Below are positions 7,528 to 61,587 of a stretch of 64,000 nucleotides of DNA, piece after piece (the stretch's first letter is position 1; every line of letters starts with the position of its first letter). The notes beneath the pieces are model-generated. The model saw only the letters and a program-made list of their open reading frames with translations, was not told the origin of the DNA and made no database searches. A program made the translations under genes and the position numbers. Source of the DNA: Escherichia coli (GTDB lineage Bacteria; Pseudomonadota; Gammaproteobacteria; Enterobacterales; Enterobacteriaceae); NCBI RefSeq assembly GCF_003334315.1, contig NZ_QOWR01000025.1; one strand, given 5' to 3'.

Positions 7528-7650
<123 letters not shown>

Positions 7651-10032: not shown

Positions 10033-10065
10033 GCCGGATGCGACGTTTGATGCGTCTTATCCGGC
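10033..10065. repeat. REP element
   Basis: gccggatgcgacgtttgatgcgtcttatccggc palindrome between the convergent rof and tilS stops. Confidence 0.75.
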
Positions 10066-41392: not shown

Positions 41393-42817
41393 TTACTGCA
41401 TTAACAGGTAGATGGTGCTGTCGCCGCGCTGAATGTTGAGTGCCAGCACAGACGGTTTGCTGTCGAGAACTTTACGCAGTTCAGCGATGTTTTTCACTGC
41501 CTGCTGGTTCGCGCCAATAATCACATCACCTTTCTTCAGGCCGATCTGCGCAGCCGGAGTGCCCGTTTTCACGTTGTTCACTACCACGCCCTGATCTTTG
41601 CCTTTGTTGCTCATCTCAGCGCCTTCAATGCCGTTGAAGATGGAGCTGGAATCAACCTGATTCTGGCTGCTCTGCTGCAGTTCCAGGTTCACGTTAACCT
41701 GCTTACCGTCGCGCAGTAAGCCCAGGGTCAGTTTGCTGCCTACCGGCATAGTACCCACCTGAGCACGCAGTGCGGCAAAGCTGCTGATCGGCTTACCGTT
41801 CAGTGAGGTGATCACATCACCCGCTTTAATGCCCGCTTTTGCAGCGGAGGAATTAGGCAGAACCTGGCTTACGAAAGCACCGCGCTGGGCGTCAACTTTC
41901 ATCGCTTTCGCCAGTTCGGAGTTCAGCTCAGTCCCCATAATACCCAGCTCACCGCGTTTCACCTGGCCGTATTCCACCATCTGCGAGGTCAGGTTTTTCA
42001 CCATGTTACTCGGGATAGCAAAACCGATACCGATGTTGCCGCCGTCCGGTGCGAGGATCGCGGTGTTGATACCGATCAGTTCGCCGTTCAGGTTAACCAG
42101 CGCACCACCGGAGTTACCACGGTTGATCGCTGCATCGGTCTGGATGAAGTTTTCGTAGTTTTCGGCATTCAGGCCGCTACGCCCCAGCGCAGAGACAATC
42201 CCGGAAGTTACCGTCTCGCCCAGACCAAACGGGTTACCAATCGCTACGGTGTAATCACCCACGCGCAGTGCATCAGAATCCGCCATCTTAATTGCGGTCA
42301 GGTTTTTCGGGTTCTGGATTTGGATCAGCGCGATATCAGAGCGCGGATCTTTGCCAACCATCTTCGCGTCGAACTTACGGCCATCGCTCAGTTGAACTTT
42401 AATGACCGTCGCGTTATCAACAACGTGGTTGTTGGTGACGACATAGCCTTTATCGGCATCAATGATGACGCCGGAACCCAGCGCCATGAATTTCTGTTGC
42501 TGGCCGCCACCATTACCGCCCTGGCCACCCTGGCAGAACGGAGAGCTCTGGAACGGAGAACCTTCCTGGCAGAACGGAGAATCATCACCGAAGAACTGCT
42601 GGAAATTACGCGGCATACGCGGCGTATTAACGGTTGTGCTACCTTCTACGTTAATGCTGACCACTGAAGGCATCACCTTTTCGAGCATCGGTGCAAGGCT
42701 TGGCATCTGCTGGGCTGTCGTTGCTGAAGAAGTCTCAGCCGCCGTTGCAGAGAGCGGAGATAACGCCAAACCTAAACTCAGAGCCAGTGCACTCAGTGCT
42801 AATGTGGTTTTTTTCAT
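41393..42817 (-). CDS. degP: periplasmic serine endoprotease/chaperone DegP (HtrA)
   Basis: 474-aa ORF with signal peptide, trypsin-like catalytic domain (GNSGG) and two PDZ domains. Confidence 0.97.
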   Translation of the reverse strand: MKKTTLALSALALSLGLALSPLSATAAETSSATTAQQMPSLAPMLEKVMPSVVSINVEGSTTVNTPRMPRNFQQFFGDDSPFCQEGSPFQSSPFCQGGQGGNGGGQQQKFMALGSGVIIDADKGYVVTNNHVVDNATVIKVQLSDGRKFDAKMVGKDPRSDIALIQIQNPKNLTAIKMADSDALRVGDYTVAIGNPFGLGETVTSGIVSALGRSGLNAENYENFIQTDAAINRGNSGGALVNLNGELIGINTAILAPDGGNIGIGFAIPSNMVKNLTSQMVEYGQVKRGELGIMGTELNSELAKAMKVDAQRGAFVSQVLPNSSAAKAGIKAGDVITSLNGKPISSFAALRAQVGTMPVGSKLTLGLLRDGKQVNVNLELQQSSQNQVDSSSIFNGIEGAEMSNKGKDQGVVVNNVKTGTPAAQIGLKKGDVIIGANQQAVKNIAELRKVLDSKPSVLALNIQRGDSTIYLLMQ

Positions 42818-50108: not shown

Positions 50109-50245
<137 letters not shown>

Positions 50246-56436: not shown

Positions 56437-58962
56437 TTAATTACTACCAAACATATCTTTAATCCAACCGGCTACACCGTCGCTGTCTTTCTGCTCTTGC
56501 TGAGCAGGTTGCTGTTGCTGCGGCTGAGAAGACTGATCAAACGGATTGCCTGACGGTTGCTGCTGCATCTCACTCTGCTGGCACAGCGATTGCGGATCGC
56601 TGGTCCAGACCGGCAAGACACGCATGCCACCGCTGCAAACAAAGTTGCCGTCGTAGTCCACGCCCATATCTGCAATATCTTCTGGCGGAACAAGATTCAG
56701 CGGTGTTGGCGTCTGGTTAGCCAGATAACGCTGATAAATCGACATTGCCCCGCTGGCTCCATACAGTTTGGTCGGCTGGTTGTTATCACGGCCTACCCAG
56801 GTGATGGTCACCGTGCTGCCGTCAATGCCCGCAAACCAGGTATCTACGTTATTGTTGGTAGTCCCTGTTTTCCCTGCCAGATGCAGGTTCGGGTATTTCG
56901 CCCCAAGCTGACGACCCGTACCGCGTTGTACAACCTGCTGCATGGTCCATAGTGTCAGATACGCCGCCTGCGCCGGAACAGCGCGTTCCGCCTGCGGGAA
57001 GCTCTGATACAGCACTTTGCCATCTTCCGCGATTACCGAACGCAGTGCAGAAAGCGGTGCACGGTTACCACCGCTGGCGATGGTCTGGAATGCCTGCGCC
57101 ACTTCGATTGGCGTTAAGTTCAACGCCCCCAGCAGCATCGCCGGAACCGGATGCAACTGATCTTTCGGTACGCCCAGTTTGATCCAGGTCTCCGTAACCG
57201 CAGGCAGCCCCAGCGCCATCCCCAGATTTACCGTCGGCACGTTCATCGAACGGGTCAACGCATCCACCAGCATCACTCTGCCACTTTCGCTATAACGACG
57301 ATCATCGTTCTGCGGTGACCAGACCTGGCCATTCGGCTGACGCAGCGCAATTGGCGCATCCGCAATCCACGTATTCAGACGATAGATTTTCGGCTGGCTT
57401 AAGGCCGTCAGATAAGTCGCTGGTTTTGCAAGGGAACCAATCGAACGACGCGCCTGCATCGCACGGTTGTAGCCCGCAAACTGCGGCTCAGAACCTCCGA
57501 CCATCGCACGAACTTCACCACTAAAGCGGTCGACGACCACAATCGCAGTTTCAAGATCGCTCAACTTACGCTGTTTCTTCAGTGCAGGAATGCCTTCCAC
57601 GGCGGCTTTTTCTGCCGCGTCCTGGGCCACCGAGTCAAAGGTAGTGAAGATCTTCACGCCGGAGAGATCTTTTACCTTATCGCCTAATTTCGCTTGCAGC
57701 TCCTGACGCACCAATTGCATAAAGGCTGGCTGTGGAGAGATTACCCCACCGCGCGGCTGAACCCCCAGCGGACGCGCACTCAACATGTCATAGAGTTCTT
57801 GATCAATAATCTGTTGCTGTTGCAGCAGACGCAGCACCAGATTACGTCGCTCCAGCGCCAGTTTCGGGTTACGCCACGGGTTGTAGATGGACGCTCCTTT
57901 CACCATACCGACTAACAGTGCCTGCTGATCGAGGCTTAGCTCTTCTACCGGGCGACCAAAGTAATACAAGCTCGCCAGCGGGAAGCCACGGATTTCGTTG
58001 TCGCCGCTCTGACCGAGATACACCTCGTTCATATACAGCTCAAGAATACGGTCTTTGCTGTAACGCGCGTCCATGATCAGCGCCATGTAAGCTTCGTTCG
58101 CTTTACGCCAGTAAGAACGCTCGCTGGAGAGGAACAGGTTTTTCACCAGCTGTTGCGTCAGCGTACTCGCACCCTGTACCGTGCGTCCGGCGGTCAGGTT
58201 TGCCAGCACCGCACGTCCGATTGAGTAGAGACTGATTCCATCATGCTCGTAAAAATGACGGTCTTCTGTCGCCAGCAAAGTATCCACCAGCAAATCCGGG
58301 AAACCACTGCGCGGCACAAACAGACGCTGCTCACCGTTTGGCGAAGAGATCATGGTGATCAGACGCGGATCAAGACGGAAGAAACCGAACTGACGGTTGT
58401 TCTCCATATTGACGATCGTCGCCAGATGATCGCCATCAAAGGTCAGACGCGCGCGCACCTGTCCTTCTTTACTGTCCGGGAAATCAAACGGACGGCGAAT
58501 CATCTCAATGCTGTTGGCCTGCACGGTAAATTCGCCAGGACGGGTCATTTTCGACACCTGACGATACTGGGTCGCCTCCAGCAGCTTCACCATCTCGTTC
58601 TTGCTGATGGTCATGTCTGGCTCAAGATTGACCATTCGGCCATAAACTGCCGCAGGCAGTTGCCAGACCTTGCCATCAATACGGCTACGAATTTTTTGAT
58701 CGAGATAAACGCCGTAAATGGCGATCAGCACGGCAAAAACGATAGCCAGTTTTAGCAGTAGCCATAGCCAGCCGCGTTTGCCACGAGGCTTACGCCCTTT
58801 GCCTTTGCCCTTACCTTTGCGCGGCATCGGTTCTTCATCCTCATAGTCATCATAATCGTCGTAATCATCGTCATCTTCGTAACGACGACGGCTTACCTTT
58901 TGTTTGACCGGACGCGTCGGTTTCCCTTTGCGTCCAATTGGCTCGCGGTCATTCCCGGTCAT
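56437..58962 (-). CDS. mrcB: penicillin-binding protein 1B (bifunctional glycosyltransferase/transpeptidase)
   Basis: Called from the ATG at 58960-58962 (MTGNDREP..., 841 codons); the in-frame ORF continues 5 codons upstream to a TTG. Has an acidic DDY / basic GKG repeat N-terminus, a TM helix, and GT51 and transpeptidase domains. Confidence 0.92.
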
Positions 58963-59059
58963 GCTTTTTCTCCGCAATATTCAGGCGCAAAAGCCCGATT
59001 TTCTGTTCTTCTGTTACAAGACAGAAGAAGATATCTCTCAAAATTTGTGCTCGATCGGT

Positions 59060-59145
59060 CCCCTCTCCCTTGAGGGAGAGGGTTAGGGTGAGGGTGAACG
59101 TGCGCGCTGATGCCCTCACCCCGGCCCTCTCCCACAGGGAGAGGG
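59060..59145. repeat. GC-rich triple-hairpin intergenic element (possible small dispersed repeat, BoxC-like)
   Basis: Three nested perfect palindromes: ccctctccct/agggagaggg (59061-59082), gggtgaggg...ccctcaccc (59085-59121) and ccctctccc-aca-gggagaggg (59124-59144), between the hrpB stop and the mrcB start. Confidence 0.6.
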
Positions 59146-59157
59146 AGAAAACCAACC

Positions 59158-61587
59158 TTACGAATACTTTTTCGTCCGTCGCGTCGGTGCAGTATTTGCC
59201 GGGTCGTCCGGCCAGACATGTTTGGGATAACGCCCTTTCATCTCTTTTTGCACCTCACGGTACGCTCCTTTCCAGAAGGCGCTCAAATCTCGTGTGATTT
59301 GTAATGGCCTTTGGGCAGGTGAAAGCAACTCCAGCACCAGCGGCACGCGCCCCTGGGCGATCGTCGGATTGGTGGCCTCGCCAAACATCTCTTGCATTCT
59401 CACCGCCAGCGCGGGCGGGTTATCTTCATGATAACGAATGGCGATCCGGCTTCCCGTCGGCACAGTGTAATGCGCAGGCAATTCACTATCCAGACGTTGC
59501 TGCATTCCCCAATCAAGTAATCCGCGTAGTGCCTGATAAATGTCGAGTGATTTCAGGCCGCGTAGTGAATGTACGCCAGTCATATGTGGCAGCAGCCACG
59601 TTTCCAGCGCTGCCAATAAACTTTCATCATCAACCGCTGGCCAGTCATATTCCGGCAACCACTTTGCGGCGCATAACAAACGCAAGCGTAGCTGTTCCGC
59701 TTCCGCCGTCCAGTTGAGCACGCTTAAACCTTTATCACGGATGCCATTAAGCATCGCCTGATGCAACTCGTCTTCTGACGGTTTCGCCAGCGGCTGCACT
59801 TTCACCGTCAACTGACCGATTTGTAGCCGACGCCAGGCTTTCAGCGTACCTTGCGCGTCATCCCACTCCACAGTGTCAGACTGCTGTACCAGCTGCGGGC
59901 AGCGTTGTACTAACTCATCAATATCGACCAGCAGCGCCAGTAAAATCCGCGCATCCGGCGAGGCGCTGCCCTGCAATAATAACGGTGCGATCAACCATTC
60001 GTGGCGGCTTAGCGCGTCGTTGGCATCGAGCATCGCTCCCATGCCGTTTGCCAGTTGATAGCGTCCATCTTGCCCACGGCGACGAGCAATGCGATCGGCA
60101 AACGCCCCGGCAAGTAGCGGCGCGATAAGCGAACTGTCTGCCTCACCGCCACGTACGTTTAAGCGTTTTAACAGTTGCTGACTACGTTGCTGCCAGGCTG
60201 GTTGATTGCGCGAAAACGCCACGCCCAGGTCACTATTGCCCATCCGTGGCGGCTCTTCGAGAATGGCGGCAATTTTTGCCGCGGTAGCAGCTTCGTCGTC
60301 GTTCTTCGCGCTAACCAGCATTGCCGCTAAACGCGGATCGTTACCCAGCGCTGCCATTTTTTGCCCTTGCGCACTAAGCCGTTCACCCTCCAGTGCCCCC
60401 AGCATTTGTAACAGACGTTTCGCGGCCAGTAGATTCACTACTGGCGGTTGATCCAGCCAGCTCATCTGCGCCGGATCGCTGCATCCCCATTGCAGTAATT
60501 CCATCAGCAAACCGGAAAGATCGCTTTGTAAGATCTCCGGTTCACTTTGCGCCGCGGCGCGTTCTGCTTGTTCTTTGGCGATTAAATGCAGGCTGATACC
60601 CGGCTCCAGACGCCCGGCGCGCCCGGCACGCTGCGTCATGGATGCCTGGCTAACGCGTTGAGTAATCAGTCGCGTAAGCCCCGTGCGCGGATCAAAACGC
60701 GCCACACGCTCCTGGGCACAATCCACCACCAGACGAATACCTTCAATGGTTAAACTGGTTTCAGCAATATTGGTCGCCAGCACCACTTTGCGCATCCCTT
60801 GCGGTGCCGGGAGGATCGCTTTTCGCTGATCGTTCAGCGACAACGCGCCATACAGCGGGCAGAGCAATACATCACTGCCGATGCGCGAAGCCAGTTGTTC
60901 CTGCACACGCTGAATTTCTCCGACGCCAGGTAAAAATAACAGTAATGATCCGCTTTCCTGACGCAGCATTTCAGCGGTGGCTACCGCAACGGCATCGTCA
61001 AAACGCTGATGCGCGGGCAGCGGTAAATAACGGCGTTCAACCGGAAACGAGCGCCCTTCTGAGATGACGACAGGCGCTTCTGGCAGCATTTGCTGCAAGC
61101 GGTCGTTGTCCAGGGTAGCCGACATAATCAGCAGTTTAAGGTCATCACGCAGACCTTGTTGCACATCGAGTAACAGCGCCAACGCCAAATCCGCCTGCAA
61201 GCTGCGCTCATGAAATTCATCAAGGATCACCAGTCCAACACCGCTCAGTTCCGGGTCACGCTGGATCATGCGCGTCAGCACGCCTTCGGTAACCACTTCC
61301 AGGCGGGTATTCGGCCCGACGCAGTTTTGCGCACGCATCCGGTAGCCAACGGTATCGCCTGGCTTTTCGTTAAGCAGCTCCGCCAGCCGTTGCGCGACGT
61401 TACGCGCCGCCAGACGACGCGGCTCCAGCAGGATAATTTTCCCGTTAATGCCGGGATGCGCCAGCAGTTGCAGCGGCAGCCAGGTTGATTTCCCGGCCCC
61501 GGTCGGCGCACTTAATAATACCTGCGGCGCACAATCGAGAGCGGTAAGTAATTCAGGTAAGACGGCAGCAACGGGCAACGACGACAC
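59158..61587 (-). CDS. hrpB: ATP-dependent RNA helicase HrpB (DEAH-box)
   Basis: 809 aa from GTG (complement of 61585-61587) with RBS ggag upstream; Walker A TGAGKST and DEFH motif; the ORF track's ATG start adds 15 codons. Confidence 0.9.
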   Translation of the reverse strand: MSSLPVAAVLPELLTALDCAPQVLLSAPTGAGKSTWLPLQLLAHPGINGKIILLEPRRLAARNVAQRLAELLNEKPGDTVGYRMRAQNCVGPNTRLEVVTEGVLTRMIQRDPELSGVGLVILDEFHERSLQADLALALLLDVQQGLRDDLKLLIMSATLDNDRLQQMLPEAPVVISEGRSFPVERRYLPLPAHQRFDDAVAVATAEMLRQESGSLLLFLPGVGEIQRVQEQLASRIGSDVLLCPLYGALSLNDQRKAILPAPQGMRKVVLATNIAETSLTIEGIRLVVDCAQERVARFDPRTGLTRLITQRVSQASMTQRAGRAGRLEPGISLHLIAKEQAERAAAQSEPEILQSDLSGLLMELLQWGCSDPAQMSWLDQPPVVNLLAAKRLLQMLGALEGERLSAQGQKMAALGNDPRLAAMLVSAKNDDEAATAAKIAAILEEPPRMGNSDLGVAFSRNQPAWQQRSQQLLKRLNVRGGEADSSLIAPLLAGAFADRIARRRGQDGRYQLANGMGAMLDANDALSRHEWLIAPLLLQGSASPDARILLALLVDIDELVQRCPQLVQQSDTVEWDDAQGTLKAWRRLQIGQLTVKVQPLAKPSEDELHQAMLNGIRDKGLSVLNWTAEAEQLRLRLLCAAKWLPEYDWPAVDDESLLAALETWLLPHMTGVHSLRGLKSLDIYQALRGLLDWGMQQRLDSELPAHYTVPTGSRIAIRYHEDNPPALAVRMQEMFGEATNPTIAQGRVPLVLELLSPAQRPLQITRDLSAFWKGAYREVQKEMKGRYPKHVWPDDPANTAPTRRTKKYS

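Follow-up and report, generated by a model that had tools for sequence, protein, structure and literature searches.

What is the palindromic block that lies between hrpB and mrcB in Escherichia coli, and does it do anything for either gene? The initial annotation of this DNA had described the block as a triple nested palindrome directly upstream of the mrcB start, and had proposed that it might act as a terminator of hrpB, a transcript stabiliser or a structure in the mrcB 5′ UTR. Here, the question is addressed for the block in the window, by which we mean the whole 64-kb stretch of E. coli DNA that was analysed, and for its relatives in other genomes.

Architecture of the block and its identity as a BoxC pair

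Read on the plus strand, positions 59061-59145 are composed of CCCTCTCCC-TTGA-GGGAGAGGG-TTA-GGGTGAGGG, an 18-nt spacer, and CCCTCACCC-CGG-CCCTCTCCC-ACA-GGGAGAGGG. The repeat finder returned all three of the perfect inverted repeats from shared words that had been announced, namely CCCTCTCCC(T) at 59061-59070 with (A)GGGAGAGGG at 59073-59082, GGGTGAGGG at 59086-59094 with CCCTCACCC at 59113-59121, and CCCTCTCCC at 59125-59133 with GGGAGAGGG at 59137-59145. It also paired the outermost words of the block (59061-59070 with 59136-59145) and revealed long arms of 27 nt (59068-59094 and 59113-59139) that are 81% complementary, and the block could accordingly be folded either into three side-by-side hairpins or into a single long hairpin. 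The block was indeed GC-rich (68%, against 52% for the window). The word CCCTCTCCC was found four times in the 64-kb window, always within the block, where 0.17 occurrences were expected and none of 100 shuffles reached four; CCCTCACCC was found twice, both times within the block. A chance origin of these repeat words is excluded. The word counts, together with the inverted-repeat layout, show that the block consists of two inverted copies of one unit, one per strand, each unit being made of three words (one C-block and two G-blocks). The three inverted repeats therefore stand, whereas the term "nested" fits only loosely a block that is built of two inverted three-word units.

Judged by its sequence, the hrpB-mrcB palindrome is the published pair of E. 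coli BoxC repeats, which are dispersed units of about 35 nt, and is as such already known. Such repeats have reportedly been described as BoxC, PIT, TMECO and HPGQ (HPG1/HPG2) elements by Bergler in 1992, by Bachellier in the 1990s, by Hoyne and Maher in 2000 and 2002, by Holder in 2015 and by Kaplan in 2016.

A total of 23 triplex motifs, termed TMECO, were tabulated in strain MG1655 and equated with the "BoxC" repeats of the 1990s and the "PIT elements" of Hoyne and Maher (Holder 2015, PMC4666352); no. 1 of that table is a type B motif at MG1655 164547-164580 on the plus strand, and no. 2 is a type A motif at 164631-164597 on the minus strand (Holder 2015, PMC4666352). The same family was independently rediscovered as conserved G-quadruplex/hairpin motifs, with HPGQ no. 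5 and no. 6 assigned to the hrpB-mrcB spacer (Kaplan 2016, PMC5100583). The whole hrpB-mrcB spacer of the window is identical to that of MG1655 (window position = 223692 − MG1655 position), and a string search placed TMECO no. 1 at 59112-59145 on the minus strand and TMECO no. 2 at 59061-59095 on the plus strand, both exactly. The first unit (59061-59095, plus strand), which was also recognised by a regular expression of the published pattern, is of type A, with TTA as its loop 2; its parts are the C-block CCCTCTCCC at 59061-59069, TTGA, the G-block GGGAGAGGG at 59074-59082, TTA, and the G-block GGGTGAGGG at 59086-59094, and it corresponds to HPGQ no. 6. The second unit (59112-59145, minus strand) is of type B, with CCG as its loop 2; on the minus strand it reads CCCTCTCCC-TGT-GGGAGAGGG-CCG-GGGTGAGGG-C, matches TMECO no. 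1 and no. 4 exactly, and corresponds to HPGQ no. 5. The published three-block pattern, 5′-CCCTCNCCC-N3-6-GGGNGAGGG-N3-GGGNGAGGG-3′ (Holder 2015), matched the window only at 59061-59094 on the plus strand and at 59113-59145 on the minus strand. According to the published rule, there are two types that differ in loop 2 (TTA in A, CCG in B), and inverted pairs, described at five MG1655 sites, always join an A with a B. The hrpB-mrcB pair follows this rule, with TTA in its plus-strand unit and CCG in its minus-strand unit, and three other MG1655 pairs have the same layout.

The 16 positions between the inverted units (59096-59111) form the loop of the long hairpin, which, in an alignment of four, is 11 nt shorter at hrpB-mrcB than in the three other tail-to-tail composite pairs of MG1655. 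Those pairs, at fepB-entC, ygfF-gcvP and alx-sstT, aligned with the hrpB-mrcB pair over both units and over their flanks (GGTTTTCT before B and GACYGATCGAGCAC after A). The flank of the type A unit, GTGCTCGATCGGTC at 59047-59060 on the plus strand (GACCGATCGAGCAC on the minus strand), is shared by all four MG1655 composites and by the lldD-trmL copy. The type B unit has a T-rich flank at 59146-59153 (minus strand, GGTTTTCT), which is conserved in the composites and ends 4 nt from the hrpB stop codon; a 4-nt T-rich stretch was reported to precede the C-block in the type B class of motif (Kaplan 2016, PMC5100583). Since these flanks outside the earlier coordinates align among the composites, the repeated element spans approximately 59047-59153. 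With its conserved flank, each BoxC unit reaches about 50-56 nt in the composite alignment; the BoxC consensus was given as 51-59 bp in the first MG1655 annotation, and is quoted elsewhere as 56 bp with 33 copies, with which the flanked units are consistent.

As the locus is tabulated in both Holder 2015 and Kaplan 2016, the initial annotation was right to favour a small dispersed repeat like BoxC over REP, and both halves of the block match the published BoxC/TMECO pattern exactly. Its remark that this was the least explained intergenic sequence of the window was overstated, the element having been described under four names. In sequence, in A+B inversion, in intergenic location and in the existence of dispersed copies, the hrpB-mrcB element is the same as BoxC/TMECO/HPGQ and differs from it in nothing. 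REP/BIME (PU) elements are likewise short GC-rich palindromic intergenic repeats that often follow stop codons, but they belong to a different sequence family. Their core GCCKGATGCGRCG is absent from 59040-59160, and a REP consensus search allowing up to two mismatches gave 16 matches in the window and none within 59040-59160. Unlike REP/BIME, BoxC has a third block that confers triplex and quadruplex potential. Ordinary BIME-type REP (PU) clusters with exact or near-exact GCCKGATGCGRCGY cores were observed elsewhere in the window, at 7586-7642, 10033-10065 and 50113-50197. In a search of 58000-60000 against Rfam 15, only generic miRNA-precursor hairpin models appeared, all below threshold (the best at 29 bits against a gathering score of 74), and Rfam lists no family for the element. 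A literature search with the literal sequences of the element returned, beyond Holder 2015 and Kaplan 2016, only a review and a primer list. We also rejected the idea that the block harbours a small ORF or an sRNA gene, since the ORFs that overlap it are mechanical and a third of strains lack the block.

Polymorphism and dispersal of the pair

A 401-nt query of the locus showed that every E. coli genome has the locus, with 1,900 of 5,436 records covering less than 80% of the query. Allele shares were taken from 60 rows spaced evenly down the ranking of locus matches and are therefore rough: the full pair made up about 58% of the sample, an allele with a 12-nt deletion about 2%, an allele with a 64-nt deletion about 5%, and alleles without the element (102-110 nt shorter) about 35%. 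In the aligned alleles, the 12-nt deletion falls between the direct repeats CCCTCA and CCCTCT, and the 64-nt deletion joins both GGGAGAGGG words, leaving one perfect hairpin, CCCTCTCCC-TGT-GGGAGAGGG, as in UTAK-22; this collapse fits the "palindrome effect" of Holder 2015 (PMC4666352). The empty allele, as in UPEC 536, has a spacer of 93 nt and TGA rather than TAA as the hrpB stop. The same 93-nt empty structure was found in E. albertii, which indicates that the empty state is the ancestral one. The hrpB stop codon (59158-59160, minus strand) is TAA in alleles with the E. coli BoxC pair, while the empty allele, E. albertii and E. marmotae all have TGA; the insertion starts directly after this codon. 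The BoxC pair is an optional insertion at this locus, real but ordinary.

The outgroups add to the history of this site. In two Citrobacter species, REP-like palindromes occupy the position of the BoxC pair; different genera have thus acquired repeats of different families just after the hrpB stop. The spacers concerned, those of C. freundii (L133, 3131-3255) and C. amalonaticus (L134, 3131-3254), carry REP/PU-like palindromes such as GGCCTGATAAGCGAAGCGCCATCAGGC. The E. marmotae spacer (L132, 3131-3278) contains a degenerate BoxC-like remnant, CCCTTCGCCCCGGTTCTCTCCCATAGGGGGAGGG, whose left junction, GGTTGGT, is that of the K-12 allele. Set against the empty alleles of phylogroup B2 and E. albertii, this remnant points to an old polymorphism, to recombination or to repeated insertion at the site. 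The approximately 90 nt preceding the mrcB ATG are conserved in all the outgroups compared, and the repeats always lie between the hrpB stop and this conserved block.

We consider it very probable that the tail-to-tail BoxC pair is a dispensable non-coding insertion that has no dedicated regulatory job here and whose effects follow from its structure. The pair would have entered an Escherichia lineage right after the hrpB stop, just upstream of the mrcB promoter. At the DNA level, its palindrome and internal direct repeats would then promote replication slippage, which would account for the truncated and collapsed alleles found here. In a 454 assembly of an E. coli K-12 strain, a break at MG1655 164580-164596 (labelled "hrpB // mrcB repeat") coincides with the palindrome spacer. 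Holder 2015 (PMC4666352) went further and regarded the motif as an "evolvability" module that is kept because it generates local variation, and reported greater variability at TMECO loci than at control intergenic sites; the circulation of at least four alleles of the hrpB-mrcB locus agrees with that proposal. However, the variation here is confined to the element, the coding ends and the mrcB control block being intact in every allele, and any palindrome with internal direct repeats would be expected to be unstable as a side effect. We therefore regard selection for variability as an improbable reason for the presence of the pair.

The initial annotation had proposed a search for further genomic copies, and E. 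coli genomes do hold them. Of 5,426 complete E. coli genomes, 4,525 matched a 95-nt query of the block, at 41,471 BLAST places in total (median 8, range 1 to 21 per matching genome); the other 901 genomes had no match. Nearly all of these places are chromosomal (36 are plasmid-borne), and the retrieved copies sit between genes, as does the hrpB-mrcB copy between the hrpB stop and the mrcB start. Matches were found in 344 of 72,556 plasmid records, many of the best being megabase-sized, and in 4 of 50,697 phage records. The latter include two 174-kb "Campylobacter phage" records, A18a (MG065686.1, 13636-13783) and A11a (MG065691.1, 160340-160487), in which a stretch matches the BoxC pair at 86%; with such a host this would not be expected, and it may reflect foreign sequence in the records.

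Such dispersal raises the possibility that an enzyme acting in trans recognises the folded core and moves the pair as a miniature mobile element. This reading is compatible with the dispensable insertion favoured above and would add an origin to it. It agrees with the presence or absence of the pair as a block that begins right after a stop codon, with the recurrence of the whole composite of about 135 nt, flanks and spacer included, at four loci, with the uneven copy number among E. coli genomes, and with the many copies of the same core between different flanks in distant phyla (described below). MITEs such as ERIC/IRU, Correia and RUP resemble BoxC in being small, non-coding, palindromic, dispersed and polymorphic for presence, but neither a target-site duplication nor a cognate transposase was found for the BoxC pair at the loci compared. 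When filled and empty alleles were compared, no target-site duplication or clean junction was visible, only a loose similarity (GACC...AGCA) at the right junction. In addition, no associated gene was found, and copies are near-absent from phages and rare on true plasmids. To our knowledge, no RAYT-type transposase is known for BoxC. On balance, mobilisation in trans remains a tentative addition, possible but not probable.

A probable 3′ end of hrpB mRNA and the mrcB promoter region

Both hrpB and mrcB are encoded on the minus strand, and the mrcB start codon ATG is located at 58960-58962 (minus strand), so that the element lies in the 3′ region of hrpB, 99 nt upstream of the mrcB ATG and not directly before it as had been stated. 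The transcribed (minus) strand of the block folds at −74.2 kcal/mol (z = −7.5). The long hairpin, at −68.4 kcal/mol, is favoured over the three hairpins at −53.5 kcal/mol, each terminal hairpin alone contributing about −17 kcal/mol.

Published Term-seq data place an RNA 3′ end at window position 59056 on the minus strand (MG1655 164636, plus strand; Adams et al. 2021, supplementary files 1 and 3), the sequence printed at this end being ...GGGAGAGGGGACCG|ATCGAGCACA (also ...CCCTCAAGGGAGAGGGGACCG|ATCGAGCACA). By the coordinates mapped from MG1655, the end follows the last GGGAGAGGG of the transcribed strand by 5 nt, and it is most plausibly the 3′ end of hrpB mRNA. It is a weak end (score 987) of the "orphan" class that was listed in one of three growth conditions in this single dataset, and no Rho-termination region is listed near 164636 in the tables of Adams et al. 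2021. Termination and exonuclease trimming look alike from this end. Ends at similar positions were found at three other BoxC loci. The lldD end at 3781065(+) and the ppiC end at 3959467(−) each lie 4 nt past the hairpin, of TMECO no. 17 and no. 20, respectively, and the fepB leader has one end 12 nt past its composite, at 624567(−), and another 4 nt before it, at 624680(−). For 14 of the 18 MG1655 BoxC loci, no 3′ end is listed in the tables of Adams et al. 2021, which may mean only low expression.

An RNA end in this position could be taken as the work of a dedicated Rho-independent terminator of hrpB that shields mrcB from read-through. The block sits 4 nt past the hrpB stop and has a very stable fold, the RNA ends 5 nt past the stem, and RegulonDB, as quoted in Kaplan 2016 (PMC5100583), treats hrpB and mrcB as separate single-gene units. 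The block thus shares with intrinsic terminators a GC-rich hairpin just past a stop codon and an RNA 3′ end a few nucleotides beyond the stem. Unlike them, it has no U-tract, is far longer than needed, has copies throughout the genome and occurs at positions unsuited to a terminator, such as the fepB leader, where termination would be senseless. A scan of 58800-59400 for a hairpin followed by a T-run gave no site, there being no T-run after any stem, and, in the summary given by Holder (PMC4666352), the reporter assays of Hoyne and Maher revealed neither terminator nor promoter activity of PIT/BoxC. Moreover, the element is missing altogether from E. albertii and from some 35% of E. coli genomes. 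A terminator function, as had been suggested for the block, is hence unlikely.

REP elements stabilise upstream mRNA against 3′ exonucleases. For a BoxC pair without a dedicated function, a similar action would be the most economical reading of the RNA end, much as REP elements act: in hrpB mRNA, the pair would fold into a very stable hairpin, and RNA 3′ ends would build up 5 nt past it through a barrier to 3′-to-5′ exonucleases, or as some other fixed processed end, and not through a canonical terminator. The 3′ ends at like positions past BoxC hairpins make it most likely that the pair marks or protects the 3′ end of hrpB mRNA, and the recurrence of this position, despite the lack of reported terminator activity, suggests that BoxC acts as an RNA 3′-end determinant. 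Of the roles first proposed, transcript stabilisation thus gains a published RNA end 5 nt past the hairpin, while the exonuclease barrier itself is something we infer.

On the mrcB side, a constitutive RpoD promoter has been reported in the hrpB-mrcB spacer from genomic SELEX (Shimada 2014). This promoter, predicted from SELEX and sequence, is TTGAGA-17-TGTAAC on the minus strand, with its −35 at 59041-59036 and its −10 at 59018-59013. It follows the element at a distance of 20 nt and falls within the cross-genus conserved block; Escherichia and Citrobacter have the −35 and the sequence around it in common, but not the −10 hexamer. A sigma-70 promoter scan of 58800-59400 called no promoter, the SELEX-predicted one included. 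For the predicted promoter, the element sits upstream of the −35 and hence outside the mrcB 5′ UTR. The suggestion of a 5′ UTR structure is not borne out, as the element also lies outside the cross-genus block and is missing from about 35% of strains.

Two further features of the mrcB side were observed. A perfect 9-bp inverted repeat, TTCTTCTGT / ACAGAAGAA, at 59006-59029 overlaps the predicted mrcB −10 and was seen in all the E. coli alleles examined; Citrobacter retains the outer 6 bp (TTCTTC/GAAGAA) but differs in the inner part. The repeat could be an operator or a leader hairpin. Codon 2 of mrcB (window position 58959) is ACC (Thr) in the window and GCC (Ala) in MG1655, O157, UPEC 536, E. 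albertii and C. amalonaticus, with the synonymous GCG in C. freundii. It is the sole difference from MG1655 in the aligned stretch, and the best of the 5,426 E. coli genomes matched at 99.8% over 401 nt.

Could the element nevertheless control mrcB through its DNA structure? Type A and type B oligonucleotides form a stable intrastrand purine-motif triplex in vitro (CD and NMR; Tm 78-82 °C), return to duplex once the complement is added, and gave no stable triplex by DMS footprinting in vivo (Holder 2015, PMC4666352), and ion-dependent switching between G-quadruplex and hairpin was observed in vitro (Kaplan 2016, PMC5100583). It is thus conceivable that a G-quadruplex/hairpin/duplex or triplex transition tunes the amount of PBP1b, as Kaplan 2016 proposed in general for HPGQ. 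Each strand carries one canonical G3 quadruplex motif by the G3N1-7 ×4 pattern (59074-59094 on the plus strand, of the G3N3 form, and 59113-59133 on the minus strand), which are two of only four in the 64-kb window, and only 5 nt separate the predicted −35 from the end of the element's conserved flank. Yet the element falls outside the cross-genus conserved block, a third of strains and the outgroup lack it, filled and empty alleles have similar sequences immediately before the −35, and the genes beside BoxC copies share no common function and no fixed distance to them. Together with the DMS footprinting, these observations make such a switch very improbable. The isolated single strands of the dispensable pair may form an intrastrand triplex or a G-quadruplex, as published in vitro, the triplex not having been detected in vivo. 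The BoxC pair is best described as a structured, slippage-prone repeat that most likely marks the 3′ end of hrpB mRNA, and as neither a regulator of mrcB nor a canonical terminator.

The BoxC core in distant phyla and its meaning

Relatives of the core were sought in one genome per species with the pattern CCCTCKCCC-N3-7-GGGAGAGGG-N3-4-GGGTGAGGG, which gave at least 120 loci in at least about 14-17 genomes. Among the matches listed, the core-bearing genomes include Sphingomonas, Hydrogenophaga (at least 24 copies), two gammaproteobacterial MAGs, Smithellaceae, Thermomicrobiales, Dehalococcoidia (Chloroflexota), Kiritimatiellae, WOR-3, Planctomycetota and Armatimonadota. The Armatimonadota MAG carries more than 60 copies (80 in the retrieved loci), and its subfamily CCCTCTCCCTTGAGGGAGAGGGTTAGGGTGAGGGTG is 96% identical over 44 nt to the type A unit of the window, both loops included, with unrelated flanks. 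Example loci of the core in distant phyla are L068 (4206-4239), L071 (7876-7909) and L122, among L011-L130. As the query fixed three 9-mers, part of this likeness is imposed; the identical loops were not. In the other phyla, the GC-rich loci of the core have 86-100% of their bases in some long stop-free frame, which makes them uninformative on intergenic placement.

The motif was previously found in 262 genomes, all of Proteobacteria (Holder 2015, PMC4666352), and a core with many copies in distant phyla goes beyond the BoxC literature reviewed. Near-identical cores in distant phyla are hard to reconcile with the absence of any dedicated function, and they suggest a sequence-specific constraint or a mobiliser. 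A search for an IS or transposase beside the Armatimonadota copies at contig ends revealed only 100-290 nt of clustered short repeats and no shared ORF; copies with identical long flanks are short-repeat arrays, which also weighs against the mobile element considered above. The likeness across phyla may result from horizontal spread, from a shared trans-acting factor or from convergence. That the C-G-G core of about 35 nt is a pan-bacterial sequence-specific module, spread or kept by a trans-acting factor, is a doubtful proposition at present.

Since the element is both catalogued and dispensable, it should be annotated as a BoxC/TMECO pair and not as an mrcB regulatory site. What our analysis adds to the BoxC literature is the ancestral empty state, rough allele frequencies, the coincidence with RNA 3′ ends, and copies outside Proteobacteria. 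The RNA ends that lie 4-5 nt beyond the BoxC hairpin at three loci, and 12 nt beyond the composite at a fourth, suggest that BoxC can resemble REP as a determinant of mRNA 3′ ends. The locus itself has little significance, and the cross-phylum core is the only part that is perhaps worth more work. The presence of a near-identical core in unrelated phyla reopens the question, standing since the 1990s, of how BoxC spreads or why its sequence is constrained.
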